Below, in pieces: positions 3,156-45,009 of a stretch of DNA of 64,000 nucleotides. Location of the stretch: IMG/VR virus record IMGVR_UViG_3300035696_001556, positions 32,001 through 96,000 of that record; one strand, 5' to 3'. Position 1 is the stretch's first letter, and the number at the start of each line of letters is the position of its first letter. Position numbers and translations under genes: made by a program. Under the pieces are notes generated by a model. The model made no database searches and was not told the origin of the DNA. It saw only the letters and a program-made list of their open reading frames with translations. Origin of the DNA: a virus.

Positions 3156-6074
3156 ATGGCAATGTATAGAAACGGATTCCATACTGCTGCTTTGGTAACA
3201 CCTATAGTAGATCCGTTTAAATGGGTAGAACAAAAAGTACCCGCCAGTAGAGTAAAAATAGCTCGTACTGCTATAGCTCATTATGACCCCTTCAGATGGC
3301 TTCTTAGCCATGCCACTATTATAGCCTCTGTTGATGTTGACTCTGCGGATTCCAAAGATAAAAAAAGCAACTATCTTATTAAACCCGAATATTCAGCTTT
3401 TGTAAATAATAATGGAGACTGTTGGGAAAGAGAGCTCCTGAAAGTTACCTACAAAACTTTCTTAGGTGCTGATAATTTTTGTTTTCCTGCTGGTACAAGA
3501 GTTTTGATGTCTGATGGAACATACAAGGCAATTGAACTTATTAAAGAAGGAGACAAAGTAATAAATCGTAAAGGTGAGATAGGAATAGTAACTAAAACTT
3601 TTACACGTGGAACAGAAGATTTAGTAGAACTCTCCGGTACTAATGTTTTATCCAGAAAGATATTTGCTACAGATAATCATCCTTTTTGGGTCTATAGAGC
3701 TCGTAAAACTTGCCCGAAAACAGGGAGGCCTAATCTTTTTGATAAGGACAAAGATTTTTGGCATCTTGATACTTGGAGAGGTTTTTCTGTTGGAGTTCAT
3801 ACAGATAAAGATGAAGAATATCCAAGTGGGTTGACCCCAGATTGGGTTAAAGCTTCCGAGATAGATTCAGATCATGAATTTTTCACCCATCCCATATCTT
3901 CTGTTGAAGTGTCAAACGAAGAAGTTAATATCAATAGAGCTGAATTAATAGGTTGGTTTTTGGCAGAAGGTTCGTATGATCAAAAAAACGTTTCTTCTGA
4001 GGAAGAATCAGGAGTGTCTTTTGCTTTAGGTAATGATGAGATAGATATAGCTAATAGATTATCAGAATTGTTAATTAAAGAGTTTGGAGATAATTTTAGG
4101 GCCGATTGCAAACCTAGAATATATGAAACTCAGTCTGGATCCTATACCCTTACCATAAGTAATAAAAAAGTTGCAGATTATTTTAAAAAATGGTGCGGTA
4201 AGTATGCCTGGGCTAAAAAGCTACCTGAAGAAGCTATGTGGCTTCCTAAAAACTTGCAGGCTGTAATTCTAAAGAATTGTATATGTGGAGATGGCTCTGG
4301 CGCGGTAGTTTCTAGAGGTTATTCTCTAGAAATGAAATCCCAAGCTTTAATACAACAGTTTAATTGGATATCTTGGAGATTAGGGTTACTTCCAACATAT
4401 AGAGAAACAGGTGTGCTCCCACGTTATACGGAATGTGAAATTGTCGACGGTTTTGAAATTTATTTAGATCCAAGTACTGGTAAAAAGTCAAGACCAGGAT
4501 ATTTGTTACGTTTTTCAACCAGAGATTCTAAAAAATTGAATGAAATAGTCGACATTGAAGATCTGTTGATGTCTGATAGACTGTCTAAAAAATATGCGCA
4601 TTCTTTTTATACCGAAGAAGGTAAATGGATCGTATCTAAAATAGACTATACTAAAGCAACAAAGCTTAGATGCACAGTCTATAATATCGAAGTGGAAGGG
4701 GATAACTCGTATGTTGTAGAGGGTGTTATAGTTCATAACTGTGAACACGTACAGATCCCAGAACTATCAAAAGGAAAAGTAATTGATGTTGCTTTAAGAG
4801 AAGTCCCAATAGGTAAAGATGTAAACGGTAAAGATATTAATACTTTGTATGTGGATATCCTTATAGCTACAAACAAAGATCATGTTGATTTAGTAGAAAA
4901 AATAAAAGATGGATCATACAATAGTGTGTCGATGGGTTGTTTAATTGCCTATAGTCAATGTTCCAAATGTGGCAGGATAGCTGCAGACGAAACTAAACTT
5001 TGCAACGACATTAAGTTTTATAAAAAAAATTATTTTTTTGACAAAAACGGAATTAAAAGGATTATAGCAGAGCTGTGCGGTAGGGCAGAAGATCCTGGTA
5101 GTTGTAAATTCATAGATGCATCTTGGGTAAGAAAACCAGCATTCGCAGGTGCAGTCCTTCGCAATTTAGTTGAGCCTTCCCCAGACATTTCCGAGAAGAT
5201 CACAAGATTTGTCAATGTGCCTTCATTTGAACCTCAGCCAGGTATGATTTTGAGAGCGGCTTCGGAAGCAGCTAGCTTGGTAAAAGAAATCAAAGCTCAA
5301 GATGAAAAGCCTCAGCCAGAAAAATCAGATTCTCCTCCAGTTCTTAAAGACCCAGCTGCTAAGGATCCGGCTGCTCCAGCAAAAGATGATACTGATTTCC
5401 CTGCAGGACCTGAGAGCGACACCCCATTGAAATTGGATGAGCCTCCAACAGAAGGTGCATCTCCAGGGACTCCGCCTGCGGAAGGTGCGGCTCCAGGAGC
5501 TCCTCCAGAAGGATCTCCGATGCCTCCGCCCGAGGGAGCACCAGCTGAACCTCAGATCCAAGAGCCTTCTGAAGATGCTACGGTAAAAGAAGTTGAGGAT
5601 ATGATGACGAAACAAATCCTCAACAAGATTAGGAGAAAGTTATTGAAAGATGAAGTACAACAGAAAATTCCTGAGAATGAAAGACCTATGGATAATACAT
5701 CCACAAACTCTACTTTTATCAAAGATGCCAACATTAGGGCAAAGTTAATTAAGTTGGCAAAGGATTCGGGGAATGAAAGATTACTGAACGGAATAATGAT
5801 ATTATCCAATATAAAGGATTGGAATAATTTCAAAAAATATGGTTACACGAAAAATGACGTAATAGGATTGTTGCACTTTGTGGACAAGAACATATCCGCG
5901 AATCCTATAGGGTCAGATGCTGTTATGGCTTTGTCTAGGATAAAAGCGGCAAGTGATGATCCTACAGCTTTTTTTACTGAGATGATTATAGAAACAGGTA
6001 GAAAACCTACAGTAAAAGAAGCTAAAAAGCTAATAAAGTGGGCTAAGATCATATCAAATTTTAAAGATGTCTAA
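3156..6074 (+). CDS. prohead (capsid maturation) protease, intein-containing, Pro-rich C-terminal extension
   Basis: After intein removal reads YKTFLGADNF-CEHVQ...KGKVIDV...SVSMGC...CSKCG...C, with candidate catalytic His and Ser; directly upstream of scaffold and capsid genes. Confidence 0.75.
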   Translation: MAMYRNGFHTAALVTPIVDPFKWVEQKVPASRVKIARTAIAHYDPFRWLLSHATIIASVDVDSADSKDKKSNYLIKPEYSAFVNNNGDCWERELLKVTYKTFLGADNFCFPAGTRVLMSDGTYKAIELIKEGDKVINRKGEIGIVTKTFTRGTEDLVELSGTNVLSRKIFATDNHPFWVYRARKTCPKTGRPNLFDKDKDFWHLDTWRGFSVGVHTDKDEEYPSGLTPDWVKASEIDSDHEFFTHPISSVEVSNEEVNINRAELIGWFLAEGSYDQKNVSSEEESGVSFALGNDEIDIANRLSELLIKEFGDNFRADCKPRIYETQSGSYTLTISNKKVADYFKKWCGKYAWAKKLPEEAMWLPKNLQAVILKNCICGDGSGAVVSRGYSLEMKSQALIQQFNWISWRLGLLPTYRETGVLPRYTECEIVDGFEIYLDPSTGKKSRPGYLLRFSTRDSKKLNEIVDIEDLLMSDRLSKKYAHSFYTEEGKWIVSKIDYTKATKLRCTVYNIEVEGDNSYVVEGVIVHNCEHVQIPELSKGKVIDVALREVPIGKDVNGKDINTLYVDILIATNKDHVDLVEKIKDGSYNSVSMGCLIAYSQCSKCGRIAADETKLCNDIKFYKKNYFFDKNGIKRIIAELCGRAEDPGSCKFIDASWVRKPAFAGAVLRNLVEPSPDISEKITRFVNVPSFEPQPGMILRAASEAASLVKEIKAQDEKPQPEKSDSPPVLKDPAAKDPAAPAKDDTDFPAGPESDTPLKLDEPPTEGASPGTPPAEGAAPGAPPEGSPMPPPEGAPAEPQIQEPSEDATVKEVEDMMTKQILNKIRRKLLKDEVQQKIPENERPMDNTSTNSTFIKDANIRAKLIKLAKDSGNERLLNGIMILSNIKDWNNFKKYGYTKNDVIGLLHFVDKNISANPIGSDAVMALSRIKAASDDPTAFFTEMIIETGRKPTVKEAKKLIKWAKIISNFKDV
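3480..4739 (+). mobile_element. intein (420 aa) with LAGLIDADG homing endonuclease
   Basis: Block A CFPAGT, block B TDNHPF, LAGLIDADG-like LIGWFLAEGS and CICGDGS, C-terminal VYNIEV...VIVHN followed by +1 Cys. Confidence 0.95.
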
Positions 6075-7353: not shown

Positions 7354-7917
7354 ATGATCGGTGAAGCATCAGGCATAGTCCCAGATAGAGGCATGAACAT
7401 ACTCTACCGTGTGACTTTAAACTCTCTGGGTAAACTGACAGATGCCGGTTTGACTCAGAACAACTACTCCAGCACACAGCAACTAGCAAACACCCGTTTG
7501 AGCACTTCGACTCCGAAGGGTATCCTTGCTGGTAGTGTCGTTGCAGTAGGAACAGTTAGCGGGACCATCGTTGCAGCTACTGGTGGAGTTACGGGTGCAG
7601 ATTCTAATACTCCAGTCGGTATTGCTGAGAACAACGCAGTGGGTTATCCTTATGAGTCCATGTCAGGTGTTGGCTCAGGAAAGGCCCCATATCTTGCAGG
7701 TTCCGGTTCAGTTTTCGCAACAGATCTTTACGAGACCGCAAATGTTAGTGGTTCAGCCTATTCAACCGGATTTGTTTCTGGTTGCTTGGTCTATGCTTCT
7801 GCAAACGGTCTATTGTGCCCGGTCGAGGACACAGGTCGCGGTGGCACGGTTATCGGTGTTTGTTTAACAGCTCCGTCAACAACGGATCCGTTCATGGTCG
7901 TCCAGATGAGGATATAA
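7354..7917 (+). CDS. capsid decoration/cement protein
   Basis: 187 aa, Gly/Thr/Val-rich, ends VYASANGLL...VIGVC as in head cement proteins; just before the capsid gene with near-identical RBS (TTAAGGAGGTTTT). Confidence 0.7.
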   Translation: MIGEASGIVPDRGMNILYRVTLNSLGKLTDAGLTQNNYSSTQQLANTRLSTSTPKGILAGSVVAVGTVSGTIVAATGGVTGADSNTPVGIAENNAVGYPYESMSGVGSGKAPYLAGSGSVFATDLYETANVSGSAYSTGFVSGCLVYASANGLLCPVEDTGRGGTVIGVCLTAPSTTDPFMVVQMRI

Positions 7918-8003
7918 CAGTTAGGGGGTTAACGCCCCCATCTGTTTTACTTTTGGGCACATGAAATTGGGTATTTACAAAAGTTTTTAAGGAGGTTTTT
8001 ACC

Positions 8004-8885
8004 ATGGCAGAGATGATCAGTAACGAAGTCAAGCAGCAATTGATAGGTGATTATATCAAGACAGCTGCTGGACGTGCTAAACTGGCTGCATCCATGATTC
8101 AACCTTTGCGTGCACGTAGAGACTATACCTCAGTAGCGCGTAAGGCTTTCTTGGTTGAGCAGCTTCCTGATGGCGCACTCCCAATCTACGACAAAGACCC
8201 GAACGTAACGGCCTTTGTTATCGGTGAGGAAGGCGAAAACGTTCTTGCGATTATCAAACCACGTAGGGTTATATTCCCGTTGTTTGAAATCGCGTCCAAC
8301 CCTGAAATTCCATTGACACAGGTCAAGGAAAGACGTTTCGATTTGATCGAGCGTGCTCAGGACTTGGCAAAGGCTCAGATTCAGGCCGCTGAAGATGCCA
8401 GAGCTTTTGATGTTATGGATGCAGTGGCCACGGTTGGTTTTGATAACCTTGGTGCAGCCTATACAAATGCTCAGGTCAATGCTACAGCTCCTATCAAGCC
8501 TGCAGATTTTATCGATGCGTTTGCTCGCATTGAGACTCACGATCTACGCGTAGCCCGCATTTTCATGAATGCTTTGGATTACGCCGATGTTCGTAAGTGG
8601 GGTAGGGACGTTCTGGACATCGAGTCTCAGGCCAGTCTGTTGAAGACCGGTTTGATGGCGACTGTTTGGGGCGCACAGCTCATCGTCACTCGTAAGGTAG
8701 ATCCGGGTTATGCCTACGTGTGTGCAGAGCCCGAGTTCTTCGGTCGTATTCCCGTGAGAACCGAACTTACGGTGCTTTCAGCAGATGATCCAAAGGCAAG
8801 ACGTATTGGATTCTCATGCTTTGAGAACCTTGGAATCGGTTGCCACAACCCGCTGGCAGTTACCAGAATCACAATCGCTCGTTAA
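8004..8885 (+). CDS. major capsid protein (HK97 fold)
   Basis: 293 aa; LAASMIQPL, FEIASNPEI, AQIQAAED, AEPEFFGRIPVR, GFSCFENLGIGCHNP resemble from memory the Bxz1-type/encapsulin-like capsid family; strong RBS; terminator follows. Confidence 0.9.
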   Translation: MAEMISNEVKQQLIGDYIKTAAGRAKLAASMIQPLRARRDYTSVARKAFLVEQLPDGALPIYDKDPNVTAFVIGEEGENVLAIIKPRRVIFPLFEIASNPEIPLTQVKERRFDLIERAQDLAKAQIQAAEDARAFDVMDAVATVGFDNLGAAYTNAQVNATAPIKPADFIDAFARIETHDLRVARIFMNALDYADVRKWGRDVLDIESQASLLKTGLMATVWGAQLIVTRKVDPGYAYVCAEPEFFGRIPVRTELTVLSADDPKARRIGFSCFENLGIGCHNPLAVTRITIAR

Positions 8886-8907
8886 GCAATTAACGGACAG
8901 ATTGAAG

Positions 8908-8940
8908 AAGGCTGGAGAGACACTCCGGCCTTTTTTATTT
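8908..8940 (+). terminator. intrinsic terminator after capsid gene
   Basis: AAGGCTGGAG-agaca-CTCCGGCCTT followed by a T tract. Confidence 0.85.
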
Positions 8941-8962
8941 ATTATCTTTATCCAAAAAATTC

Positions 8963-8991
8963 TTGCAAAAAATTAGTATTCATGGTATATT
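8963..8991 (+). promoter_or_regulatory. sigma70-type promoter for nuclease-methyltransferase gene
   Basis: TTGCAA-N17-TATATT with extended -10 TG; AGGAGG RBS downstream. Confidence 0.65.
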
Positions 8992-9009
8992 TAAGATAGG
9001 AGGTATTAT

Positions 9010-11133
9010 ATGCAATATGCTTTTAATAAACTGGATAAAGACAGTCTTTTGAAACTCTATACTGAATTTGGTTTCAGATTAAAAGAGATAGGAGCTATGG
9101 TAGGTATATCTGAAGACGCTGTGATTAAAAGAGTGAAGCTATACGGTATACCGACGATCCCCAGAGATAAAATAAAAGAAAACGTAGATGTCCTTTATAC
9201 AGGTAAAAAGAAAGACAAGAAAAAAGAATTAACAAACGATGAGCTGTTGCGTCTATGCAGGATTGGATATTCAGATGCGGCTATCGGTGAAATGTACAAT
9301 ATGACCGGCGAAGGAATTGCTTATAGAAGAAAAAAGGTGGGTATAGATTTATCCATAAAATTTAATGAAACAAAAGATAATGTAGCCAAATTAAAAGAGA
9401 CCCCAAAAGAAGTTCTTACCTTTGATTATTATAATTTAACTCAAGAAGAGTTTTCAGATAAATATGGTATATCCAAAGCTGTTTGGAGGCCCTATTTGAA
9501 AAGTTTGTGTATCAAAGGAAAAGAGGCCAATAGAATAGATAGTTATCCTCCTTTCAACAAAAGTCAAAGAGATCTTATTATTGGAGGTCTGTTGGGAGAT
9601 GGATCAGTAAGTCAAGGTGTTCGATACTATGAGTCTCATTCTAATAAACAAAGACTGTACATCCTCAAAAAATTCCAAATATTAGAACCATATTCTTCTG
9701 AGATACATCCTTGTGATGAAAATACCGGTTTAAGATTCTTGACTATTCATCATCCAAACTTCATGGAGTTTTATAATGTTTTTTATGAAAAAGGCCTAGA
9801 AGGAAAACTTATACCAGTTGAGTTTATTAAGAATAATTGGTCAGATGAAATTTTAGCATATTGGTTTTTGGATGATGGATACTATGATGACGAAGCCAAT
9901 GAGTTTTTTATAAGTAATCTGTGCCCAAAGATAAATCAGTTAGAGGATTTTTTGAGTTTTTTAAATGAGAGATATGGTTGGAATTTTCATTATTCTTTTT
10001 TTAAAAATATCTATAATATAATATTCTCAAAAGAATATTATAAAGATTTCGTGGATATAGTTCTCAAAGTAGCGACTCCAGATATGTATTACAAGATACC
10101 AGAGAAGTGCCTTACTCCTGTGATGGTTTCATCTGTGCCTTTTGAAGAGGCTTACTCGGTAAAACCTAAATTTTACAGATTAGCTTCCCTTGAGAATAAG
10201 ACTAAAATGGAGATTCTTCTTTTTAACTATTATAGAAAAAGGGGGTTTCCTTACTCTCGGGTAACGCCTAAAAGATTAGATTATCTTTTGAATTGTTTTA
10301 AAGATTTGGAAATTAAAGTAGAAGGCGGTAGGATCGCACACAATGCTTCCGGCATTAAGTTATGCGAAAATTTCTTTCCTAATCTATATGAATGCTACCA
10401 AAAAGGGCACAAGACACCTATAGATCAATGGAATGAAGACGGTAGCCTTCAAAGACTGATTAAAAATAGATTAGAATATGCTGATAGAATATCTGATGCT
10501 TCTGTTCGAACAGGAATAAAACTACTGTTTAACGCCGTCACCAATTTCAAGCCTATTATCGCTAAGTATCTTTATCAGAAGTACGCCAAGAACGGCAAAG
10601 TTTATGATTATAGCTGTGGCTTCGGGTCCAGGATGTTGGCGGCAATGTCTCTGGATATGGAATATGTTGGTTGTGAGCCAAATTTGAAGACTTACGAAAA
10701 TCTTCAAAAGTTTGGCGTATTCTTGGCAGAGAGGACAAAAGGAAGTTTTTTTGTTACTGATAAAGGATCTGAAGAGTTCATATATAAAGAAAGCTATTTT
10801 GATTTAGCTTTTTCTTCCCCTCCTTTTTTTGATTATGAAGTATACTCTCAAGATCCTGGGCAAAGCATAGTTAAATACTCAAACTACGAAGATTGGCTGA
10901 TAGGGTTTTGGAGAAAAGTAATAGAGAACTGTCGTACTATGCTTGTTCCGGGGGGACATTTTGGAGTATGTATAAGTCTTAATCAGCACGAGCATATGAT
11001 TAAAAAAACTATAAAATTTTGTGCTGAAATAGGCTTCATTTTGGTAGAGGAGCTCAGAGCGCCCTACAAGCAGTTATTCTCTAAGAATGAAGATAAATAT
11101 GATTTGATTTTAATCTATAAAAAATCAAACTGA
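9010..11133 (+). CDS. HTH repeats + LAGLIDADG endonuclease + amino-DNA methyltransferase fusion (copy 1)
   Basis: Three HTH-like segments, LIIGGLLGDGS and LAYWFLDDG motifs, then motif I VYDYSCGFGSR and motif IV FSSPPFFDYEVY. Confidence 0.85.
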   Translation: MQYAFNKLDKDSLLKLYTEFGFRLKEIGAMVGISEDAVIKRVKLYGIPTIPRDKIKENVDVLYTGKKKDKKKELTNDELLRLCRIGYSDAAIGEMYNMTGEGIAYRRKKVGIDLSIKFNETKDNVAKLKETPKEVLTFDYYNLTQEEFSDKYGISKAVWRPYLKSLCIKGKEANRIDSYPPFNKSQRDLIIGGLLGDGSVSQGVRYYESHSNKQRLYILKKFQILEPYSSEIHPCDENTGLRFLTIHHPNFMEFYNVFYEKGLEGKLIPVEFIKNNWSDEILAYWFLDDGYYDDEANEFFISNLCPKINQLEDFLSFLNERYGWNFHYSFFKNIYNIIFSKEYYKDFVDIVLKVATPDMYYKIPEKCLTPVMVSSVPFEEAYSVKPKFYRLASLENKTKMEILLFNYYRKRGFPYSRVTPKRLDYLLNCFKDLEIKVEGGRIAHNASGIKLCENFFPNLYECYQKGHKTPIDQWNEDGSLQRLIKNRLEYADRISDASVRTGIKLLFNAVTNFKPIIAKYLYQKYAKNGKVYDYSCGFGSRMLAAMSLDMEYVGCEPNLKTYENLQKFGVFLAERTKGSFFVTDKGSEEFIYKESYFDLAFSSPPFFDYEVYSQDPGQSIVKYSNYEDWLIGFWRKVIENCRTMLVPGGHFGVCISLNQHEHMIKKTIKFCAEIGFILVEELRAPYKQLFSKNEDKYDLILIYKKSN

Positions 11134-11199
11134 TTAATTTTCTCTCAACTCTCCCCCATAATAACCTCATATTATTTTGATCTCTAAAAAGGGGATACT

Positions 11200-11655
11200 A
11201 TGAGGTCAAAATTCATGATTGCCGCTTTCGTTGGCTTTATTTTAAGCCTAGCTTTTGGAGCCATGAATGTACAGAAATATATGGTTCCTACCAAAGAAGA
11301 CCTAGGCGTCTACAAAAACGAAATCCATGAACTATATGACAAACCGGTTTTTACAGTAGGACCAGAAGACAGACTCCTGATCATATTTGAAAGCAGGCAC
11401 TACTATAAAGTCCAAACAACGGACAACAAATCTGGGTGGGTCGAGAAACAGTTTCTGGTTCCCGCAGTCAAAGTTAGAGCCAAACCTCTTGTGTTCGAAG
11501 ATGCCCAAGTTATAGGGTATCTTGATAATCCAGTCCTTCTCTATATCATAGATGCTAACAATGTCAACGCTGATCCTATTAAGTTAGATCGTTCGTTTAA
11601 GTACGAACTCCACCAAAATACCGATATGGAGACCATAGAGCGTCAAGCTAAGTAA
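11200..11655 (+). CDS. secreted/membrane protein with SH3b-like domain
   Basis: N-terminal signal peptide (MRSKFMIAAFVGFILSLAFG); YYKVQTTDNKSGWVEK SH3-type motif. Confidence 0.65.
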   Translation: MRSKFMIAAFVGFILSLAFGAMNVQKYMVPTKEDLGVYKNEIHELYDKPVFTVGPEDRLLIIFESRHYYKVQTTDNKSGWVEKQFLVPAVKVRAKPLVFEDAQVIGYLDNPVLLYIIDANNVNADPIKLDRSFKYELHQNTDMETIERQAK

Positions 11656-11666
11656 CCCGTTCCCCT

Positions 11667-11684
11667 TAATACTCTACTATTATT
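11667..11684 (+). promoter_or_regulatory. putative late promoter motif
   Basis: TAATACTCTACTATTATT. Confidence 0.5.
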
Positions 11685-11721
11685 TCTACCCAAATGTAGC
11701 ATATCCCGCGAAAGGGCTATC

Positions 11722-12414
11722 ATGAGACAGTTGATAACCTCACGTCTCCATATTATTGCCTCAGAAATGAAGGAAAAAGGAGAAACCGACGATCTTTTCA
11801 AAAAGATTAAAGATGAGTACGGTATAACCGTATTGCCAGATAATAAGTGTGAGAATGTAAAGAAACTATATGAAGCTCTTCAGAAGTTACCAGCGCAGTT
11901 AGTAAGAGATTGTAAAATAGATACCATGGATTTCAAGGATCTTGGACCATCGAGAAAATTCTATCCAAATCATGGCAGCTATAAAAAAGGAGTCCTTACC
12001 ATAAATGAGCGCATCTTGAAAGATCGATCCATGGAAGTGGATCCTTCTGGAAAGAAAATGTCTAAATTCGAGCAGACTTATTTTCATGAGTTAGGACATG
12101 GTTTTGACGAGAAGAAGAAGGGTGAATCGAAATGGCTGAGTCTCAAAGATGACTGGACTGAGTTATCCGGATGGTCTGAAAAACCTAAGCCTAGATTTAA
12201 AAGGCTTATAATAAGGGAAGAGGGCACGCCGGAAGTAAAAGGAGAGTGGTATTATTCTCCAGATGCTAAATTCCCGAGGTTCTATGGAAAGAGAAATCCC
12301 TGGGACGATTTTGCCGACAGTTTTTCGTATTACGTAGCGGGTTTGAGAAACTTTTTACCTGAGAATAAAAGAAAATATTTTGATGATCTTCTCAAAGAGT
12401 ACAAGATCAAATGA
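11722..12414 (+). CDS. zincin-type metallopeptidase-like protein
   Basis: TYFHELGHGFD (HExxH) plus downstream YGKRNPWDDFADSFSYY. Confidence 0.7.
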   Translation: MRQLITSRLHIIASEMKEKGETDDLFKKIKDEYGITVLPDNKCENVKKLYEALQKLPAQLVRDCKIDTMDFKDLGPSRKFYPNHGSYKKGVLTINERILKDRSMEVDPSGKKMSKFEQTYFHELGHGFDEKKKGESKWLSLKDDWTELSGWSEKPKPRFKRLIIREEGTPEVKGEWYYSPDAKFPRFYGKRNPWDDFADSFSYYVAGLRNFLPENKRKYFDDLLKEYKIK

Positions 12415-13310
12415 ATACCCTCGATGAAAAAGCAAGGATAGTCCTGCAGCCTGAATCTTTTGAGCACTATATAAAGGCACTCAACTTAGAACCAATAGAA
12501 AAGGTAAAAGAAAGATTCGAGAAGGTAAGGCCTGTCAATGAGATGATCCCGTATATAAACAATGGTCAGCTGGATAAAGATCGAACAAGATTAGAGTTGG
12601 AAACCGGTAAAGTCATAAATAAGAATCAGCCCGGAAAATTTTTGGTAAACATGAATCCAGAGCTTGTGAGAAGAATGTATAAGCCACAAAATGTTATAAA
12701 CTTCTACGAAAAAGAGTTAAAAACTGTCGGTAAGAGTGCAAGCTTAGAATCTCTTAATTGCAAGATAGCAGCTATTACTCTCCTTAATACTATAAAACCT
12801 AAACTCAGAGGATTTTCAAAATATATAGCGGCTCTTGATGAGGCTTCTTGGTATCTCGAGGAGGAGCCCCGAATAAGATCTTCGGAGAGGCTTTATAAAT
12901 TAAGTTCAAAACTTCCCAAGGATAAGTGTGCGAGTCAGATCGAACGCATAAAGACAGTAGCTGCCCAGCTTAATGATCCAGGCTATAAGGATCCAGGTAG
13001 AGTAACAACCAAGGGGCACCAGACTTTAGCCCAGCTTATGATAGAGACAAAAGGGACGGTACAAGAATTTCTTAAGAAAGTTGAAGAGTGGGCTAAACCT
13101 GAGGAGAAAGATACCTATAAGGACAGAATGGTCAAGCAGATTTATAATTTTTTCATCAAGCATATGGAACATCACAAGACGGATACACCTCAGGATATGA
13201 TAAAGGTAAACAAGGAAGCGGATGAGCTCGTTTCAGAGATCATAAAAGCTGCAAGCATATCACAGCAACTTATAGACAAAATTGAAAAATATAAGAGAAC
13301 ATTAAATTAA
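12411..13310 (+). CDS. hypothetical protein, possible head-internal protein
   Basis: 299-aa ORF, ATGA overlap with previous gene. Confidence 0.65.
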   Translation: MNTLDEKARIVLQPESFEHYIKALNLEPIEKVKERFEKVRPVNEMIPYINNGQLDKDRTRLELETGKVINKNQPGKFLVNMNPELVRRMYKPQNVINFYEKELKTVGKSASLESLNCKIAAITLLNTIKPKLRGFSKYIAALDEASWYLEEEPRIRSSERLYKLSSKLPKDKCASQIERIKTVAAQLNDPGYKDPGRVTTKGHQTLAQLMIETKGTVQEFLKKVEEWAKPEEKDTYKDRMVKQIYNFFIKHMEHHKTDTPQDMIKVNKEADELVSEIIKAASISQQLIDKIEKYKRTLN

Positions 13311-19109: not shown

Positions 19110-19283
19110 ATGAAGCGTACAAACATACATCTGACGGAAGATGAGATTAAGAATCTCGACAAGATATCGGAGCGTTCGGAATTGAAAAAAGCTGAACTTA
19201 TCCGAAGAGCCGTTGATGATTTCATTGAGAATTATAAAATTTATGGTTTGACAATAAAAGGTATAACAGGAGTAGTGAGATGA
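19110..19283 (+). CDS. CopG/ribbon-helix-helix DNA-binding protein (57 aa, not in ORF track)
   Basis: MKRTNIHLTEDEIKNLDKISERSELKKAELIRRAVDDFI; stop overlaps the glycosyltransferase ATG (ATGA). Confidence 0.8.
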   Translation: MKRTNIHLTEDEIKNLDKISERSELKKAELIRRAVDDFIENYKIYGLTIKGITGVVR

Positions 19284-22200
19284 CCACAGATAGTAAATTA
19301 CTTAGCCTGAATCTTATCGTAGGCCCCGGTGAAGAAAAGGAATTAAAGCGATGTTTAGAGTCTTGTAAAGGAGACCTCTTCGATGAGATTTGTGTCACGG
19401 TTGCTACTCCAGATCCAAGTGAATCCCTTACGGCTATAGCCCTCGAGTATACCACAAATGTTACCTATTTCAAATGGATAAAGGATTTCTCTGCCGCGAG
19501 AAATTTCAACTTTGCTCAATCACATTGTACACATGTGCTTTGGTTGGATGCAGACGACGTCATCAAGCCTGATAATTATCAAAAGCTTCTAGCGCTGAAA
19601 CCGTCCCTTGCTGGTTTCGATATTATTTTGCTTCCCTATGTCTATGCTCACGATGACAAAGATAACCCTGCAGTAGTTCTACCTAGAGAGCGTATAATCA
19701 AAAATTGTCCAGAGATTTCCTGGCACGATCCTATTCATGAATATTTGAACATGGAACCACAGTTCAAGATGAAAAAAGAAGAGAACATTTTCATAGACCA
19801 TTACAGGACAAAGCCATTTAATCCAAAAAGAAATTTAGACCTTTTAAAAATAGAATATGAGAAGCCTAACTGTTCCGCTAGGATAAAGTTCTATTATGGC
19901 AAAGAACTTGCGGATAACAACGAATGGGATGCAGCTGTTCCAGTCCTTGAGCAATTAATAAATTCCGGAGAGGGCTTCAGGGATAATCTGGTGATAGCAT
20001 GCATAAAATTGTCTAGATACTATCACACAAAGAAAAATTACAATGCTGCGAAAGCCATAGCTCTTAAAGGTATAAGTTTCAGTAACTGCTATGCAGAAAA
20101 CTATCTTCTTTTGGGAGATGTTTATTGGGAACAAAAAGACAGGGATAATGCGACAAAATATTATTTGGAAGCCATGACAAAGAAAGTTGGTACCGCAGGG
20201 ATGTCTCAAGAGGCAGATTATTATAGATTCCTACCGGCATGGAGACTGGCCCAGGTATACCGAGAAATGTATGACTTCAAAAAAGCTTTAAAATACTGCG
20301 ATATAGCGATAGAATGTAAGCCGGATTCGAAGGAGTTGAAAGATTATCGTAATGACCTGGTAAGAAGCTCTTCCGCAGTAAAAACAGATCTTGTTATTAA
20401 AGATGAGGTTGAAAAAGCTTTTGAGGATTTGGCTAAAAAAATGAATCTCCACATGGAAGTTGAAACTAACAACATAGAGTATGCTAAATTGAAGATCAGT
20501 AAAATAATGAAAATGAAAATTGCTTGGATGCTCCCTTCTCTAAATATGGCCGAGCCTTCTACAAGAATAAGAAGAATCAATATACATAAGTATTTTGAAA
20601 AAGTCGGGACAGAAAGTGTCATTGTCGATAATTATAGAGGAAAAAATATATATGAGTTAAGGAATAAAGTAGCTGATTCAGATGTGGTTATTTTTACAAT
20701 ATATGGTTTTGAAGAATTAGAGCTGATGAAATACTTCAAGTCTTTAGGTAAAAAAATAATTTTTGATTTCAATGAGGCTATTTTTGGATATCCACTGCAA
20801 CATGAGTGTTTTAATCAAACCGATGTCGTTGTTACATGTTCAACAGTCCTTGCAGAAATGACCGCCAAAAGCGGATACACTAAACCCATAGCAGTCATAA
20901 AAGATGCTGTGGAAGACACACCAGACAAGCCGTCTGCAGTTTATGAGAATAGATATGAGAAGCCTAAAGCACTTTACATAGGTATGGGAGGTAACAGCTT
21001 TCTCGCTTCGGAATATCTTAAGGATGCAATCGATAGGGCTGGATATGATTTGATAATGATAACTGAATGGGATAATGCTACCAAGAAATGGGACCTTAAT
21101 ACCTGGCCTAAAGATATGTGTGCCTGCGATGTGGTGCTATGCCCTCAAAGGGTGGACGTCCAGCCAGCTAAAAGTAATGTCAAGGTTACAACCGCTATGG
21201 ATCTTGGTATGCCGGTCATAGCTTCTCCTCTCCAAGCATACAAGGAAATTATCAAGGATGGAGAGAATGGGTTTCTGTGTGATAAACAAGAGGAGTGGTA
21301 TAACGCCCTTATTAAACTCAAGGATCCGGAACTCAGAAAAAAAATAGGATTGGCCGGTAAAAACTCTATAGATGAATATTCTTTGGAGAGTATCGCCAAC
21401 AACTGGAGGATGCTGCTGGAAACAGTAGTATATGGACGTGTAAAATCCGTAATAGACAAAGAGGAGATAAAAGAAAGCGAGACACCAGAAAAAGCAAGAG
21501 ATCAAGTAGATATTATAATCACAAACTACAATAATGTCGAGTATCTTAAACTATGTGTCAGTTCTATAATGATGAATACTCTCCACCCATTTAATCTGAT
21601 TATTTCTGATGCAGGTAGTGATAAAGAAACGTGGGATTATCTTAACAGCTTAAAAGGTGTCACCATTTTAGGTAAACAGGGAGAACGTAAAAATTTCTCC
21701 CAGACTTGTAACGCAGGCATAGGTCAATCTACGACCAAATATTTTGTCATAATGAATTCAGACTTGATAGTATCAAAATGCTGGTTAACTCCTCTCGTTG
21801 AGAAAATGAACGGCATTAACAGGTTGGCAGCTTGTGGAGTCCTATCTAATTGTGATAGGGGTTGGTTACATGGGGTGCCTGGAAAACCTACATATCCTAT
21901 GAAGCTTCCTAAAGCAGATATAGAATTAGTACCAGGAATGAAGTATGACCAGATTAAACCGCATCTAGATGAGCTATGTAGTTTCATGCAGGAATCTAAT
22001 AAAAATAATGCTGGAAAATATATAAAACAAGATTGGGTGGCGGCTTATTGCACGATTTTTGCAAAGAGCGCTTTAGAAGAAGTTGGATATTTTGATACTC
22101 AATTCAAAAACGGCTGTGAGGATCTCGATTTGTGCAGAAGATTAAGTAATTGCGGATATGAGATAGGTCAAGCTATAGACTCTTTTGTGTTTCACTTCGG

Positions 22201-24670
22201 AGGTGTCTCTAGAGGAGCCTATCAATCTGAAAATAGAGAGTCTTACGATAAAGAAGATCAAGAGAATCATTTAATGTTTCAGAGGAAGTGGGAAAGACAG
22301 AAAGTTGTAATCTGGACTGGTCCAGCATGGGAACCATGGTCGAAAAAAGAAGTAGATAAAGGGATGGCAGGGTCTGAGACTTGGGCAACTTATTTAGCTG
22401 AAGCTTTTGCTAGAAAAAATTATGAAGTTACTATCTATAATGATATCCCTGGGGATAAGAATGGCTATATTTTGGAGCCCGTAGAGGGACTCAATAATCC
22501 TGTAAAATACAGGGATCATACTAGATTTAATGAGGATATCCAGTTCCAATATGTGGATTATCTGATAAGCTCCAGAAGTCTTGAAGCCATAAAAGCGAAT
22601 GTACATACTCATCACAGATATGTCATGATCCACGATATTTGGATTTCGGGAGACCCTAATTTTGATATCATGTCCTGGAAGATTGATGGATATGCTTACT
22701 TAAGTGAATGGCACAAACAGTTTTTATTGCAGCACCATAAGATACCGGAAAATAAGATGTTTTTAACTGCTAATGGTGAAAATTTTAAAAATTATGAGGA
22801 TGTAGATAGCTATGTTAAAAAGAATCAAGCTGTCTACAGTTCGAGTCCGGACAGAGGACTTTACGAACTTTTAACTGTTTTGCCAGTAATAAGAGAAAGC
22901 GTGCCAGATTTTCAGATAGTTGTAGCATATGGTTTTTATAACTGGGAATCTATGTGCAAAGCTAGAAAAGATGAAAAAGGATTACAAGCTATAGCTACCA
23001 TAAAAAAAGCCATGGAGCAGCCAGGAGTAGTTTACGTGGATCGGATAGATAAAAAGACTTTGGCTAAATACCAGAAAGAATCTAAAGTTTGGTTGTATCC
23101 TACATGGTTTAGCGAAACACAGTGCTGCCTTCCTGGTACAAAAATTGTAACTAATAGTGGTTTAAAAAATATAGAAGATGTTACCTCAGAAGATTGTGTA
23201 TATACACATAAGGCTAATTATAAAAAAGTGTCTAAAGCCATGTCCAGAGAGGCAGATGAAGACATTTATGAGATAAAAGTAGAATATTTAAAAGACCCAT
23301 TAAGAGTAACTGGGGAACATCCTATTTATGTTCTACAAAAAAAGAATATAAAATGTTTGAGAATTAGTCATATGGTATGTACAAAGAGAGGGGATCATTG
23401 TAAAACTGATTTTTGTTATTCTAGCCATTATGGTAAAAAATATTATACACCAGGAGCTTGTAAAAATTTAATAGAGAACAAAAATCCTTGTTGGTTAAAA
23501 TCTTCAGAGTTGCATGAAAAAGATTATTTAATATATCCTATCAACAAACTAAACAAGGAATTGGAAGATTTCTCTAATTTTGTTGTTAGTGATAAGCTAA
23601 TTGATGGGGTTATCCGAACAAATAAAACAAAAAGGGGTAGGCCACACGGTATTGAAAATTTCACGATGAATGAAGACTTTTTGGAACTGTGTGGATGGTA
23701 TGTCTCTGAAGGCTGCTTCGATTCGATATCAAGAATCCATTTTGCCCTCAATAAAAAAGAAGAAAAAGAAGCAGTTTTTATAGAAACCCAACTTCAAAAA
23801 TTGAAGTTAAAAACAAAAAGATACTACGCGAAAGATACTAAATCTTTGAGCGTCTCCACTAGTTCCGTAGTGTTAGGTAGGTTTTTTGTGGATAATTTTG
23901 GTTCAGGTGCTGAAAACAAACATATACCTGAATGGATTAAAAATTTAGGACCACAATACCTTAAATACTTTTTGAAAGGTATACTAAAAGGTGATGGTAG
24001 TAAAAATGTTGGATGTACAGTTATTAACTCTGCTAGTGAAAATTTGATATATGATTTATTTGATATACTTTTGAAATTTAAATGTGTATCTTCTTTGGGT
24101 AATTTTGAAAAACCCAGACTTTATAAAATTAATGGAAAAGTTATGAGAGACTATACAGAAAAGTTAAAAGGGTATAGTCTGTCGTGCTCCATGTCACAAA
24201 ATCCAGAATTATTTAATTTTATTGGTTTTAAGGCTGTTGCGTCAAAAAAAATAAGTATTCACGGATTTTTTGACGAGGACAATGTTTATTTGCCTATTCG
24301 TAAAATATCAAAAAGTAGATATGTAGGTAAAGTCCACAATCTTGAGGTGAAAGAGGATAACTCCTATATTGCCAATGGTGTGACAGTTCATAACTGTATA
24401 ACCGCAACTACAGCTGGTTTGTCAAAATCTGCTATAGTTACTTCTAAATATGCCGGTTTAATTACCACTGTTGGAGATTCTGGCATACTTTTAGAGGGAA
24501 GCAGCACGTCTGCCGAGTATCTCAATAAATTCACTGAAGAAGCCATTAAACTTCTTAAAGACGAAGATTATAGAAGAACATGGGCTGAAAAGGCCTGGAA
24601 TAAGATGCAAATGTATTCTTGGGATAAAATAGCCAATGGATGGATAGAACAATTTAACAAGTTTAAATAA
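19280..24670 (+). CDS. giant multidomain glycosyltransferase (GT2-TPR, GT4-like, GT2, GT4-like), intein-containing
   Basis: DFSAARN...WLDADD...IHEY (SunS/SgtA-like GT2), TPRs, GMPVIASP...DGENGFL, second GT2 (MNSD, EDLDLC, HFGGVS), YSSSPDRGL...YPTWFSET. Confidence 0.9.
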   Translation: MTTDSKLLSLNLIVGPGEEKELKRCLESCKGDLFDEICVTVATPDPSESLTAIALEYTTNVTYFKWIKDFSAARNFNFAQSHCTHVLWLDADDVIKPDNYQKLLALKPSLAGFDIILLPYVYAHDDKDNPAVVLPRERIIKNCPEISWHDPIHEYLNMEPQFKMKKEENIFIDHYRTKPFNPKRNLDLLKIEYEKPNCSARIKFYYGKELADNNEWDAAVPVLEQLINSGEGFRDNLVIACIKLSRYYHTKKNYNAAKAIALKGISFSNCYAENYLLLGDVYWEQKDRDNATKYYLEAMTKKVGTAGMSQEADYYRFLPAWRLAQVYREMYDFKKALKYCDIAIECKPDSKELKDYRNDLVRSSSAVKTDLVIKDEVEKAFEDLAKKMNLHMEVETNNIEYAKLKISKIMKMKIAWMLPSLNMAEPSTRIRRINIHKYFEKVGTESVIVDNYRGKNIYELRNKVADSDVVIFTIYGFEELELMKYFKSLGKKIIFDFNEAIFGYPLQHECFNQTDVVVTCSTVLAEMTAKSGYTKPIAVIKDAVEDTPDKPSAVYENRYEKPKALYIGMGGNSFLASEYLKDAIDRAGYDLIMITEWDNATKKWDLNTWPKDMCACDVVLCPQRVDVQPAKSNVKVTTAMDLGMPVIASPLQAYKEIIKDGENGFLCDKQEEWYNALIKLKDPELRKKIGLAGKNSIDEYSLESIANNWRMLLETVVYGRVKSVIDKEEIKESETPEKARDQVDIIITNYNNVEYLKLCVSSIMMNTLHPFNLIISDAGSDKETWDYLNSLKGVTILGKQGERKNFSQTCNAGIGQSTTKYFVIMNSDLIVSKCWLTPLVEKMNGINRLAACGVLSNCDRGWLHGVPGKPTYPMKLPKADIELVPGMKYDQIKPHLDELCSFMQESNKNNAGKYIKQDWVAAYCTIFAKSALEEVGYFDTQFKNGCEDLDLCRRLSNCGYEIGQAIDSFVFHFGGVSRGAYQSENRESYDKEDQENHLMFQRKWERQKVVIWTGPAWEPWSKKEVDKGMAGSETWATYLAEAFARKNYEVTIYNDIPGDKNGYILEPVEGLNNPVKYRDHTRFNEDIQFQYVDYLISSRSLEAIKANVHTHHRYVMIHDIWISGDPNFDIMSWKIDGYAYLSEWHKQFLLQHHKIPENKMFLTANGENFKNYEDVDSYVKKNQAVYSSSPDRGLYELLTVLPVIRESVPDFQIVVAYGFYNWESMCKARKDEKGLQAIATIKKAMEQPGVVYVDRIDKKTLAKYQKESKVWLYPTWFSETQCCLPGTKIVTNSGLKNIEDVTSEDCVYTHKANYKKVSKAMSREADEDIYEIKVEYLKDPLRVTGEHPIYVLQKKNIKCLRISHMVCTKRGDHCKTDFCYSSHYGKKYYTPGACKNLIENKNPCWLKSSELHEKDYLIYPINKLNKELEDFSNFVVSDKLIDGVIRTNKTKRGRPHGIENFTMNEDFLELCGWYVSEGCFDSISRIHFALNKKEEKEAVFIETQLQKLKLKTKRYYAKDTKSLSVSTSSVVLGRFFVDNFGSGAENKHIPEWIKNLGPQYLKYFLKGILKGDGSKNVGCTVINSASENLIYDLFDILLKFKCVSSLGNFEKPRLYKINGKVMRDYTEKLKGYSLSCSMSQNPELFNFIGFKAVASKKISIHGFFDEDNVYLPIRKISKSRYVGKVHNLEVKEDNSYIANGVTVHNCITATTAGLSKSAIVTSKYAGLITTVGDSGILLEGSSTSAEYLNKFTEEAIKLLKDEDYRRTWAEKAWNKMQMYSWDKIANGWIEQFNKFK
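23123..24394 (+). mobile_element. intein (424 aa) with LAGLIDADG homing endonuclease
   Basis: CCLPGT block A, TGEHP block B, LCGWYVSEG and LKGILKGDGS, VHNLEV...VTVHN followed by +1 Cys. Confidence 0.95.
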
Positions 24671-38018: not shown

Positions 38019-38915
38019 ATGTCAGTAACTTTTTATCAGGGTCAATCTTTAACGTCCAGTGATTTGAAAATAATAATAAGAGATCCGACAGGAGTCCCTA
38101 TAGATCCTTATTATATCAGATATTCTTTGTTTGATAATACGACCGGTGTACTGGTTTTAATAGGAAATCCAGATCAAATACCAGCTACTACCGGAGTAGG
38201 GCAGTATTATTCCAATGCCGTAATACCTCTGGATGCTAATCTTGGAGATTGGGTCATACAGTGGCATTTTATGCTGACTCCAACTTCTCCTCTCATCGAA
38301 GTAGTTCAAGAATTTACTGTCGTAGATAAGACTATAAATTATGAAGTAGCAACGAGCACAGCCCAAAACACTTTGATGACAAGACTGAGAATAATGCTAA
38401 GGGACAACAATCCGGATAGGAACTACCGTTTTAGACCACCATCAACTGAAAAGTTCATGCAGACTCGGACTCAAGTTTTCGGATACATCTGGGAAGATGA
38501 AGAGCTCTACGAATGTCTTCTTATGGCAGTAGATGAATTGAACTCATCGCCGCCTGTTACCAGTGTAACGTTGGATAATATACCGGATCGCTGGAGAACT
38601 AATATTTTGTTGAGAGCTGCAGCTTTCGCTTGTGATTCTGTTACAGCTAATTGGATAGTAGATGAGTATGGATATACAATAAGCGGAGTGTCTTTGGATT
38701 TGGAAAAATCTTCAAAATATCAAGCCCTCGCAGAAAGTTTTTTAACACAGTGGGATAAATCAAGAGAACTTATCAAAGCTTCCATAAAAATTATCAAAGG
38801 ATTGAGTCAGCCTCGATACGGAATAGGTATATCGAGTGCACTTGGTCCTTACAGTAGACCTGGTACTCAGTCAAGAAGAAATTTTATTTCAGGATTTCGT
38901 GGAGGATGGTCTTAA
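38019..38915 (+). CDS. probable head-tail adaptor (neck) protein with N-terminal Ig-like domain
   Basis: RLRIMLRD...WEDEELY...YTISGVSLDLEKSSKY pattern of adaptor proteins; position in module. Confidence 0.6.
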   Translation: MSVTFYQGQSLTSSDLKIIIRDPTGVPIDPYYIRYSLFDNTTGVLVLIGNPDQIPATTGVGQYYSNAVIPLDANLGDWVIQWHFMLTPTSPLIEVVQEFTVVDKTINYEVATSTAQNTLMTRLRIMLRDNNPDRNYRFRPPSTEKFMQTRTQVFGYIWEDEELYECLLMAVDELNSSPPVTSVTLDNIPDRWRTNILLRAAAFACDSVTANWIVDEYGYTISGVSLDLEKSSKYQALAESFLTQWDKSRELIKASIKIIKGLSQPRYGIGISSALGPYSRPGTQSRRNFISGFRGGWS

Positions 38916-41827: not shown

Positions 41828-43195
41828 ATGGAAAAAAACTTCAACAGACCCTTTTTCCCTCTGCCTTATAGAAGTGGAGACGATAGGCCTCCAACTCTTC
41901 CTCTGGCACCTCGTAACGTTAACATAACGAGTCCATTTCTAATTGGGATCGTCGATGTCAGGTGGGATGATCCATCTGTTTATGCTGAAAATAACAGATT
42001 CAATATCCTAGGTGTAAATGTATATAAATCTTATGACTCCTCTGAGGGACCGTTTACAAAAATAAATACTGATCCGATAGGAATATCTTTTTATAGAGAT
42101 CAGACCCAAGAAACCACGGTGACGGAAGATCCTACCCAAGGTGGAAGATTTATAGCTGGAACAACGGCAACAAGGGATTGGATAGCTAAGTCCTACAACA
42201 AACCGATAGTTATACCTGGCACCAATGGTCAGTTAGCGGATAACTGGACTCATGTGATGGTACAGATTAAGAGAACCTCAGCCGATCAGTTCGTAGTGGT
42301 ACCGGCTTTCAAAGTAAAAGGAGAGACTGGAGAAATCTATCTTATAAGTTCACAGGTTTATAATAATACAACGAATAGATTAGAAGAACCTGTTTTGCCT
42401 TATTTAGATCGAGGTGGAGAAATAAGAATAACGTATACTTACATACCTCCTAGCAGTTATATCCAAACAGATTTGCATAGAAGAATTTACTACAAAGTGA
42501 CCACGGTAGGTATAGATGCTAGTTGCGACAGTGGTATCATGGAAACGCCGTTAAACGAAGTAGAAGCTTTTAATCCATATGATATGGAAAAAATAGATTG
42601 GATTTGGGCTGAATCAATAAGAAGAAATAGATGGATACTCGAGCAAGGCGGAGAACGTGTAAAGCTATTTATAAGGAAGTGGTCTGGAGTCAGATGTCCT
42701 TGTTGGAATGAACAGTTTAGACAGTCTAAACAGGACGATCTGCAGTGTTACGGGGTCGGATATATTGGCGGATACCAAGGCCCATTAGATATAATCATCG
42801 CTCCTCCAGAAGGTGAAAAAATAGTAAATCTTTTTGATATTGGATTACGTGTAACCTATGATTGGCCAAGTTGGACCGGCCCCTATCCCTTACTCAGTGA
42901 TCGTGATTTTATTGTGCGTCAAAACAATGATAGATTCTCGCTAGCCCATATCAATCCTCAAGGATCGAGAGGAGCCATATATCAGCAACATTTCCAATTG
43001 CATCAGTTAGAACAAGGAGACATTAGATATCAGGTTCCTATCACTGGTGGAGCTGTAAGCGTGCCTCCAGCCTGGAACGCTTTCAGAGAGCCCAAACCTA
43101 CCGATGCAAGTCCTGTTATTAACGATAAGCCTACAGTCCCTGAACAATATCAATACAAAGGCAGAAGCGTGACTTTCGAAAATATTGTGATGTAA
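41828..43195 (+). CDS. probable neck/head-closure protein with FN3-like N-terminus
   Basis: APRNV...VRWDDP...GVNVYKS; LEQGGERVKLFIRKWSGVRCPC...CYGVGYIGGY. Confidence 0.6.
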   Translation: MEKNFNRPFFPLPYRSGDDRPPTLPLAPRNVNITSPFLIGIVDVRWDDPSVYAENNRFNILGVNVYKSYDSSEGPFTKINTDPIGISFYRDQTQETTVTEDPTQGGRFIAGTTATRDWIAKSYNKPIVIPGTNGQLADNWTHVMVQIKRTSADQFVVVPAFKVKGETGEIYLISSQVYNNTTNRLEEPVLPYLDRGGEIRITYTYIPPSSYIQTDLHRRIYYKVTTVGIDASCDSGIMETPLNEVEAFNPYDMEKIDWIWAESIRRNRWILEQGGERVKLFIRKWSGVRCPCWNEQFRQSKQDDLQCYGVGYIGGYQGPLDIIIAPPEGEKIVNLFDIGLRVTYDWPSWTGPYPLLSDRDFIVRQNNDRFSLAHINPQGSRGAIYQQHFQLHQLEQGDIRYQVPITGGAVSVPPAWNAFREPKPTDASPVINDKPTVPEQYQYKGRSVTFENIVM

Positions 43196-44963: not shown

Positions 44964-45009
44964 GTAAATAGAGTATTTTTGTTATAAAATCTAAAACAGG
45001 AGTTTGAAT

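Follow-up and report, generated by a model that had tools for sequence, protein, structure and literature searches.

The stretch of viral DNA analysed here (64,000 bases, hereafter the window), which comprises bases 32001-96000 of the 173,494-base IMG/VR virus record IMGVR_UViG_3300035696_001556, carries directly behind its major capsid protein gene a single gene, P0001 (9010..11133), in which three helix-turn-helix (HTH) modules, a LAGLIDADG nuclease domain and an amino-methyltransferase are joined in one chain of 707 amino acids. Sequence comparison, structure prediction and genomic setting indicate that P0001 is probably a mobile homing nuclease to which an active DNA methylase is fused; the role that the methylase plays in the element stands outside this estimate and is weighed separately below. 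Taken singly, neither homing endonucleases nor orphan phage methylases are unusual; it is their conserved single-chain union, with interchangeable modification domains, that is widespread here. The original prediction, made from the letters of the window, knew of no characterised fusion of this kind, and a literature search limited in coverage likewise found neither a LAGLIDADG-methyltransferase nor a LAGLIDADG-Mom fusion described. A megablast comparison of window positions 8000-12500 with GenBank phages gives no match. CheckV assigns the record a completeness of 37%, which makes it part of a huge-phage genome with a full length of roughly 0.45 Mb. P0001, its expression signals and flanking genes, and a second, diverged copy of the fusion all lie on the + strand.

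Architecture of the fusion protein

P0001, defined by open reading frame (ORF) calling, motifs, Pfam, PHROG and homologues, is a single open frame of 707 codons with an ATG start, and the sequence AGGAGG is found six bases 5' of this ATG. All four motifs named in the original prediction are present: GLLGDG at residues 193-198, WFLDDG at 285-290, DYSCGFG at 533-539 and SPPF at 603-606. The claim that one 707-residue ORF unites three HTH units, a two-motif LAGLIDADG domain and an amino-methyltransferase is therefore sustained by the agreement of ORF, motifs, Pfam and AlphaFold. Profile and structure prediction, which had been proposed as a check on the domain boundaries, delimits the HTH modules, the LAGLIDADG core, a helical subdomain and a Rossmann half. 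The alternative of two separate genes is contradicted by independent metagenome proteins: a word-indexed search returns 97 proteins of similar length, and more than 60 of them (703-711 or 800-880 residues, on contigs of up to 474 kb) align over the whole of P0001, end to end, with 45-79% identity. The gene is AT-rich, as had been noted, with a GC content of 0.337 against 0.39 for the genome, which puts the gene among the lowest 3% of genome windows of the same size.

Regarding the expression signals, a terminator-like hairpin of 15 pairs followed by a T run is read from the sequence after the capsid gene (8903..8937), and a promoter-like site (TTGCAA, 17 nt, TG, TATATT) together with the AGGAGG ribosome-binding site precedes the ATG (8963..9005). 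The predicted position of P0001 behind a capsid terminator is thus upheld by the hairpin, but the promoter also claimed for it, at 8963-8991, amounts to a consensus match, because such sites are no commoner in this region than in shuffled sequence (12 found vs 10.5 expected).

Two other readings of the gene were considered and rejected. An intein is contradicted by the lack of any Hint or intein Pfam model in P0001, in line with the original prediction, the same scan being able to detect Hint in the neighbouring ORF 3156..6074; the gene's own ribosome-binding site and ATG, as well as its HTH-built N-terminus, also speak against an in-frame insertion. An intron-borne gene is rejected since no Rfam intron is found at window positions 7510-12630 (locus L001) and the capsid ORF is intact and ends before P0001. 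The same Rfam search is positive in a relative, L017, where a group I intron (RF00028, 61 bits, E 7e-14) occupies L017:2954-3261 within the major capsid gene, the capsid protein being 93% identical to that of the window.

The three N-terminal HTH modules span residues 1-178 (9010..9543). In the AlphaFold model of residues 1-385, built with 107 homologues (predicted local distance difference test, pLDDT, 94.1; predicted template modelling score, pTM, 0.75), they appear at about residues 1-50, 66-112 and 120-178, before the LAGLIDADG core. At the sequence level the support is weak and consists of HTH and Sigma70_r4/ECF matches only, next to PHROG 323, 9759 and 8446. The first module is missing from the relatives of 800-806 residues.

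The next domain (residues 179-370; 9544..10119) is recognised through PF03161, a sequence match to I-SceI and Foldseek as a monomeric, double-motif LAGLIDADG nuclease domain. Pfam LAGLIDADG_2 (PF03161) covers residues 188-347 with an E value of 4e-17, above its cut-off, and AlphaFold predicts a double alpha-beta-beta-alpha-beta-beta-alpha core with both motif helices in one chain. Motif 1, GLLGDG (9586-9603), contributes Asp197, and motif 2, WFLDDG (9862-9879), contributes Asp289. Among 107 homologues reaching down to 22% identity, conservation is at least 90% for G196, D197, G198, D288 and D289 and complete for G290, in agreement with the claim that the acidic catalytic positions are retained. 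Furthermore, the acidic pair is kept in 68 of the 69 LAGLIDADG domains found behind related capsid genes (27/27 fused, 41/42 unfused). The solved structures that head the Foldseek list for the 1-385 model are I-WcaI (6x1j, E 6e-11, TMt 0.71) and I-SceI (1r7m, E 2.4e-10, TMt 0.72), and I-SceI is also recovered from sequence alone with E 1e-4; WhiA (3hyj, E 9e-6), I-DmoI and intein endonucleases are far lower matches. By predicted fold, motifs and catalytic residues, the nuclease half of P0001 is assigned to the I-SceI-like LAGLIDADG proteins, with a predicted activity.

I-SceI and I-WcaI (PF03161), the best matches in both sequence and structure, share with residues 181-366 of P0001 the presence of two LAGLIDADG helices per chain and an Asp ending each motif, and the second motif of P0001 closely resembles LAYWFMDDG of I-SceI. 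In contrast to P0001, these enzymes comprise about 235 residues, reside in mitochondrial group I introns and carry no extra domains, whereas P0001 is a free-standing phage gene with three N-terminal HTH modules and a C-terminal methyltransferase of 324 residues.

The methyltransferase unit, separated from the LAGLIDADG domain by a linker of about 12 residues, is modelled with high confidence (residues 380-707, 146 homologues, pLDDT 96.7, pTM 0.93) as a helical N-terminal subdomain (residues 384-515; 10159..10554) followed by a Rossmann-fold catalytic half (residues 516-707; 10555..11130). The helical subdomain contains the conserved motifs GFPY (residues 412-415) and NFKP (512-515), and its F34, P35, F134, P136 and A139 (domain numbering) are at least 90% conserved in the 146 sequences used for the methylase unit; the same subdomain is also found in stand-alone relatives of 330-350 residues. 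The catalytic half, identified by PF01555, a PDB profile and BFVD, has a Rossmann fold with motif I (DYSCGFG, 10606-10626) and a motif IV (SPPF, 10816-10827) of the (D/N/S)PP(Y/F) amino-methyltransferase class. Across the family, conservation is at least 90% at the D, G and G of motif I and at the S, P and P of motif IV. Pfam N6_N4_Mtase (PF01555) matches residues 598-706 with E 3.5e-6, above the gathering score, and is the top Pfam family in 76 of the 146 members. P0001 ends 101 residues after SPPF, and no C-terminal target-recognition domain is present.

A phmmer search of PDB with the single P0001 sequence gives nothing below E 0.1 for the methylase half, and an NCBIfam scan of P0001 gives no usable match. 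In PDB, the family profile aligns, with its two halves swapped, to the modification methylase 2zie of Thermus (E 7.9e-8) and, more weakly, to the DNA cytosine-N4 methylase 8s9n (E 1.5e-4). Motif I precedes motif IV in P0001, which is the reverse of PF01555 and not the order of the beta class. With beta-class methylases (PF01555; TTHA0409, 2zie; M.PvuII) P0001 shares the SPPF/Y motif IV and an alignable motif X-I region (F-x-P ... D-x-x-x-G-x-G); it differs from them by its circular permutation and by a helical N-terminal subdomain of about 130 residues in place of the internal target-recognition domain. In BFVD, the whole-domain structural matches are viral proteins (TMq 0.74-0.83), several of them from pithovirus and annotated as cytosine-N4 DNA methylase (E 4.9e-19, TMq 0.74 for one such match). 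A stand-alone 330-residue relative in Vibrio phage 2.058.O, located among nucleotide-metabolism genes, is annotated as an N4-cytosine methylase. In amino-methyltransferases, SPP(Y/F) favours N4-cytosine over N6-adenine. As judged from these sequences, the nearest kin of the P0001 methylase are circularly permuted N4-cytosine/N6-adenine DNA methylases, and N4-methylcytosine is the most likely product. Sequence kinship and annotation likewise make DNA the likely substrate.

The fusion family and the slot after the capsid gene

Comparison with metagenome proteins indicates that the LAGLIDADG-methylase fusion is a widespread family and not a one-off. The same fusion is present in at least 140 metagenome protein clusters, 21-79% identical and mostly located on huge-phage contigs, and an exhaustive search yields 4,782 representatives at E <= 1e-3, 209 of them at E <= 1e-30. 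When 234 proteins are scanned with dedicated profiles of the HTH, LAGLIDADG and methylase parts, 108 show the full HTH-LAGLIDADG-methylase order and 36 LAGLIDADG-methylase; a further 72 match the methylase profile only. The last group includes stand-alone proteins of 330-350 residues and fusions to HNH, to TnsA-like nucleases or to homing-endonuclease-associated repeats.

The genomic setting of P0001 was compared among relatives retrieved from IMG/VR with the capsid protein as probe. This search returns 282 relatives, from which 80 loci with a capsid identity of 75-95% were kept; the post-capsid regions were scanned with profiles of the three parts, and the slot was tallied in the 58 loci with at least 2.5 kb readable 3' of the capsid gene. 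The left flank of the slot is the conserved major capsid protein gene (8004..8885; 293 residues; PHROG 2522 major head protein, E 3e-53), and the right flank is a conserved gene of 230 residues (11722..12414; tblastn and blastn), which is recovered by tblastn with 42-74% identity in 11 loci, 0.5-4.3 kb after the capsid gene. The variable segment between them also contains, after P0001, an orphan ORF of 151 residues (11200..11655), for which no homologue is found in the 80 related loci and only sub-cut-off SH3_3 and YpmT matches are obtained.

The occupancy of this slot is patchy, as the original prediction had proposed to check. A LAGLIDADG+methylase fusion is present in 23 of the 58 loci, one or more LAGLIDADG genes without methylase in 20, and a methylase with another N-terminal part and no LAGLIDADG in 2; the remaining 13 have none of these parts. 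Tandem arrays of three or four LAGLIDADG genes occur in L042, L047 and L062, and two consecutive fusions in L011 and L057. In two relatives, orthologues of P0001 (69% and 59% identical) stand at exactly the same post-capsid position, and the downstream genes differ. Blastn homology to related loci always ends at the capsid stop codon (8885) and resumes at the next conserved gene from 11734. In the empty allele L016, the C-terminal 44 residues of the capsid protein are identical to those of the carriers L026, L027 and L038.

Furthermore, the fusion and capsid lineages are incongruent. L009 and L011, taken as the nearest capsid proteins in this test, have capsid proteins at 86-88% and fusions only 26-27% identical to P0001, and the fusion closest to P0001 (L002, 71%) rides with an 81% capsid protein. 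The overall relation between LAGLIDADG/methylase identity and capsid identity is positive and weak (Spearman 0.35). Since its presence is patchy at one specific site, the homology break coincides with the capsid stop codon and the lineages are incongruent, P0001 bears the hallmarks of a free-standing homing-endonuclease gene, cleavage and gene conversion being read here from their genomic footprint only. Together with the 68 of 69 acidic pairs kept, these features give good support to the homing-nuclease half of the original prediction.

The insertion boundaries are resolved only to the interval that begins with the capsid stop codon and ends at the following conserved gene, because no two genomes exceed about 87% identity in the capsid gene. 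The C-terminal capsid sequences of carriers and empty alleles were also compared in search of a target or immunity site; the tails are near-identical in both groups and the DNA is too diverged for a footprint.

Among known free-standing homing genes, the seg and mob genes of T4-like phages resemble P0001 in being intergenic beside a conserved gene, in their patchy distribution, in having their own expression signals and in carrying extra DNA-binding modules. They differ in that they encode GIY-YIG or HNH nucleases with no DNA-modification domain, and in that their self-immunity comes from target sequence differences.

A second copy of the fusion, P0002 (38986..41271; 761 residues), is identified in the window by Pfam, motifs and tblastn. 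It has the same order of HTH, LAGLIDADG (GWLAGDG, YYMDDG) and methylase (PCAGWGG, TSPPY), with LTSPPY as the context of motif IV, and is deeply diverged from P0001 (23% identity over the LAGLIDADG-to-methylase span). A record-wide search reported copy 1 alone at its threshold; copy 2 was recovered by tblastn, which finds no third fusion copy in the 173-kb record. P0002 occupies a second variable slot, between the conserved genes 38019..38915 and 41828..43195. A P0002-like fusion occurs in just 2 of 33 related loci, and in the empty form the flanking genes are about 0.4-0.9 kb apart. Copy 2 is thus as patchy at its own slot as copy 1.

The modification domain itself varies among related elements. 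L005 and L006, whose capsid proteins are the closest to that of the window (94-95%), contain a different slot cassette, with a 652-residue HTH-LAGLIDADG_2-Mom fusion (L005:8232-10190) in which the Mom family PF25680 scores 32.7 bits (cut-off 27.1). LAGLIDADG and Mom are joined a second time, independently, at L035:9407-11527 (PF25680, 39.7 bits), and LAGLIDADG is fused to ParB_N at L010:6887-8644. In L044:3561-6878, the same slot encodes a protein of 1106 residues with HTH, LAGLIDADG and two consecutive methyltransferase domains, and in P0114 a GNAT domain follows the methylase. The Mom domains of L005 and L035 belong to the same family as Mom of phage Mu, which modifies an exocyclic amino group in DNA; Mu Mom differs in being stand-alone and tightly regulated, with no nuclease fusion. 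Collectively, these sequences indicate that one HTH-LAGLIDADG chassis has been joined repeatedly to DNA-modifying domains in this phage clade, a pattern that is new here. Given this repeated fusion to DNA-modifying enzymes, DNA is likely to be the substrate of the C-terminal half of P0001 as well. The pattern also suggests that the pairing of nuclease and modification is selected and not accidental.

Coupling of the two halves and the role of the methylase

The coupling of the two halves is indicated by their tight fusion over deep divergence, by their co-divergence and by the several modification domains found on one chassis. The pairwise identities of the LAGLIDADG and methylase domains co-vary (Mantel r 0.87, reached by 0 of 500 permutations), with a weak correlation in distant pairs (Spearman 0.20). 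Structure prediction proposes an interface between the two domains as a weak pass: the score is 0.57 vs 0.22 for the best control, at least 52% of the contacts are common to the runs and the partner pLDDT is at least 83. The mark used is reached by 58 of 80 solved complexes and by 2 of 110 mismatched pairs, and the range at 0.60 or under holds only 7 of the 80 complexes together with both passing mismatches.

In the mechanism proposed for P0001, the target is a long site that would lie at the conserved 3' end of the capsid gene or close to it; in a mixed infection, relatives without the cassette would be cut there by the LAGLIDADG nuclease, together with the HTH modules, and recombinational repair would then copy the whole cassette into the slot directly after the capsid stop codon. 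The methyltransferase of the same polypeptide would modify the carrier's DNA, so that the intact target of the carrier is marked and the nuclease, following a restriction-modification (R-M) logic, spares self and cuts unmarked rivals. Such self-marking of the carrier target, which the original prediction had also offered as a one-protein R-M-like weapon against competing phage, is the role preferred here for the methylase, although it is held tentatively and at somewhat less than even confidence; independent cargo, weighed below, is the main alternative, and what these two leave of the probability falls to targeting or other roles. The broader proposal of a class of one-chain, R-M-like selfish elements, in which a fused modification domain (methylase, Mom-like, ParB_N or GNAT) spares the carrier target and the unmarked capsid locus of rivals is cut, is rather unlikely on the present evidence. 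If it were true, cutting of the rival locus would both spread the gene and harm the rival, and P0001 would be the first LAGLIDADG-based R-M-type enzyme. Should methylation govern the nuclease, the fusion would provide free-standing homing genes with a new solution to self-immunity in which the target stays unchanged, a link between homing endonucleases and R-M systems, and a source of long-site nucleases whose cutting is switched off by a cognate methylase.

The closest parallel to the proposed logic is provided by Type IIG/IIL enzymes (MmeI, BpuSI, Eco57I), which, like P0001, combine in a single chain an N-terminal nuclease, a helical region and, last, an amino-methyltransferase whose motif I precedes motif IV. 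The likeness is one of proposed logic only, since these cellular defence genes encode a non-specific PD-(D/E)xK nuclease and a C-terminal target-recognition domain, whereas P0001 has a LAGLIDADG nuclease of the sequence-specific type, no C-terminal recognition domain and the setting of a mobile phage element.

Several observations weigh against the proposed mechanism, some of them against self-protection as an obligatory function of the methylase. The predicted interface is a weak pass, as described above. Against obligatory self-protection, methylase-free LAGLIDADG genes occupy the same slot at 20 loci. In the same sense, nine clusters (P0070-P0078, 403-432 residues) and the loci L052, L053 and L059 lack the Rossmann half; these proteins, 403-444 residues long, have intact acidic residues and retain the HTH modules, the LAGLIDADG domain and, of the helical subdomain, the initial 55-100 residues. 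In L059 and L052, another LAGLIDADG gene begins exactly where the truncated gene ends, an arrangement which suggests that one homing gene has been inserted into another. Because stand-alone methylases of 330-350 residues with the same helical subdomain exist, the methylase probably has a short specificity of its own. The compared related phages are 25-35% apart in DNA; the comings and goings are therefore old, and the data contain no recent homing event or fresh junction. Regarding the substrate, Foldseek and VIA-align comparisons with solved structures return generic class-I methyltransferases with Trm11, TrmN and Trm14 on top (Z 18-19). Thus, tRNA N2-methylguanosine (m2G) enzymes head these matches, DNA and RNA enzymes are not separated by structure, and RNA formally stays among the candidate substrates of the methylase half.

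Some of these points would also be expected if the homing nuclease drives mobility and the methylase is independent anti-restriction cargo, which has its own short motif, exerts no control over the nuclease and guards the phage DNA against host restriction; the fusion would then merely keep a selfish gene and a useful gene together. This explanation is less likely, but it has to be taken seriously. Phages commonly encode the methylase unit in stand-alone form (as in Vibrio phage 2.058.O), the two-methylase and methylase + GNAT forms resemble accumulated cargo, and nuclease-only derivatives and neighbours persist without the methylase. Mom of phage Mu is a broad anti-restriction modification, and the Mom family (PF25680) of the sister fusions points the same way. 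Cargo, however, does not need to be part of the same polypeptide, yet the fusion with its linker of about 12 residues persists across at least 140 clusters whose identity falls as low as 21%; the co-divergence of the LAGLIDADG and methylase domains and the weak pass for a defined interface between them are further points against it. If the methylase is only cargo, the family would show selfish nucleases ferrying anti-restriction functions between huge phages.

Two further explanations dispense with present-day homing. A non-cutting HTH/LAGLIDADG part could act as a WhiA-like long-site binder that delivers the methylase, for example for regulation near the capsid operon, as in the alternative offered by the original prediction of a methyltransferase targeted by its LAGLIDADG/HTH module. 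The tight fusion and the absence of a C-terminal target-recognition domain after motif VIII are compatible with it, and the N-terminal model also matches the structure of WhiA (3hyj and 8dy7), which combines a LAGLIDADG fold with HTH modules. WhiA, however, has lost the catalytic acids and is a conserved chromosomal regulator, whereas P0001 keeps the acids and is patchy; the conservation of the nuclease residues (at least 90% in 107 sequences), with the Asp pair present in 27 of 27 fused slot copies, makes the targeting-only explanation less likely. The patchiness of the gene and its replacement by unrelated LAGLIDADG, RRXRR and TnpB genes are not expected of a regulator, and the helical subdomain, a part able to serve recognition, is retained in stand-alone methylases. 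This possibility is considered highly improbable. Somewhat less remote, although still improbable, is a domesticated old fusion, inherited vertically in the late operon of the clade, lost in some lineages and immobile now. It would account for the relatives at 59-69% identity with the gene at exactly the same position and for the positive though weak correlation with capsid identity; it also suits the divergence of all compared genomes (at least 25% in DNA), among which no recent transfer is seen. It fits poorly with a slot in which at least four deeply different fusion lineages (21-71% identity) alternate with unrelated nuclease genes, with the occurrence of the most distant fusions in the capsid-nearest relatives, with the tandem LAGLIDADG arrays and with the low GC of the P0001 gene. 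Mobile homing is kept as the probable explanation, with self-marking by the methylase as its preferred, tentative reading.

Other selfish elements around the capsid gene

In this clade, the capsid region is densely populated by selfish elements (inteins, a group I intron, TnpB, LAGLIDADG genes in tandem), so that competition between such elements can usefully be studied there. In the slot cassette of L005 (L005:7113-10190, the same in L006), the LAGLIDADG-Mom fusion is preceded by an IS605 OrfB/TnpB gene of 371 residues. The post-capsid slot can also contain another nuclease-like family, represented by the RRXRR (PF14239) + DUF7487 proteins of 638-700 residues at L056:2656-4755 and L059:9272-11185.

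Upstream of the capsid gene, the window ORF 3156-6074 encodes 972 residues, compared with about 529 in relatives, and gives a C-terminal PHROG match to a head maturation protease. It is split by an intein of about 420 residues (insert at about 3478-4742), as indicated by Hint, Intein_splicing and LAGLIDADG_3 matches. L005 and L006 are without this insert and carry another one of 1.2 kb elsewhere in the same gene (L005 1718-2958). An Intein_splicing match is also obtained for residues 1309-1705 of a 1796-residue multi-glycosyltransferase/TPR protein (window 19280-24670), which would be the second intein in the window.

Elsewhere in the window, an IS605 OrfB/TnpB-type gene of 406 residues (26963-28183; PF01385, PF07282 and PF12323) has a GC content of 0.328. 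The ORF with the lowest GC (0.299), at 46019-47194, encodes a 391-residue protein in which DUF723 and a treble-clef zinc finger (DUF4379) are recognised; it may be another selfish nuclease-like gene. The adjoining ORF 45004-46026 encodes a Volactin-family protein (E 1.5e-57).

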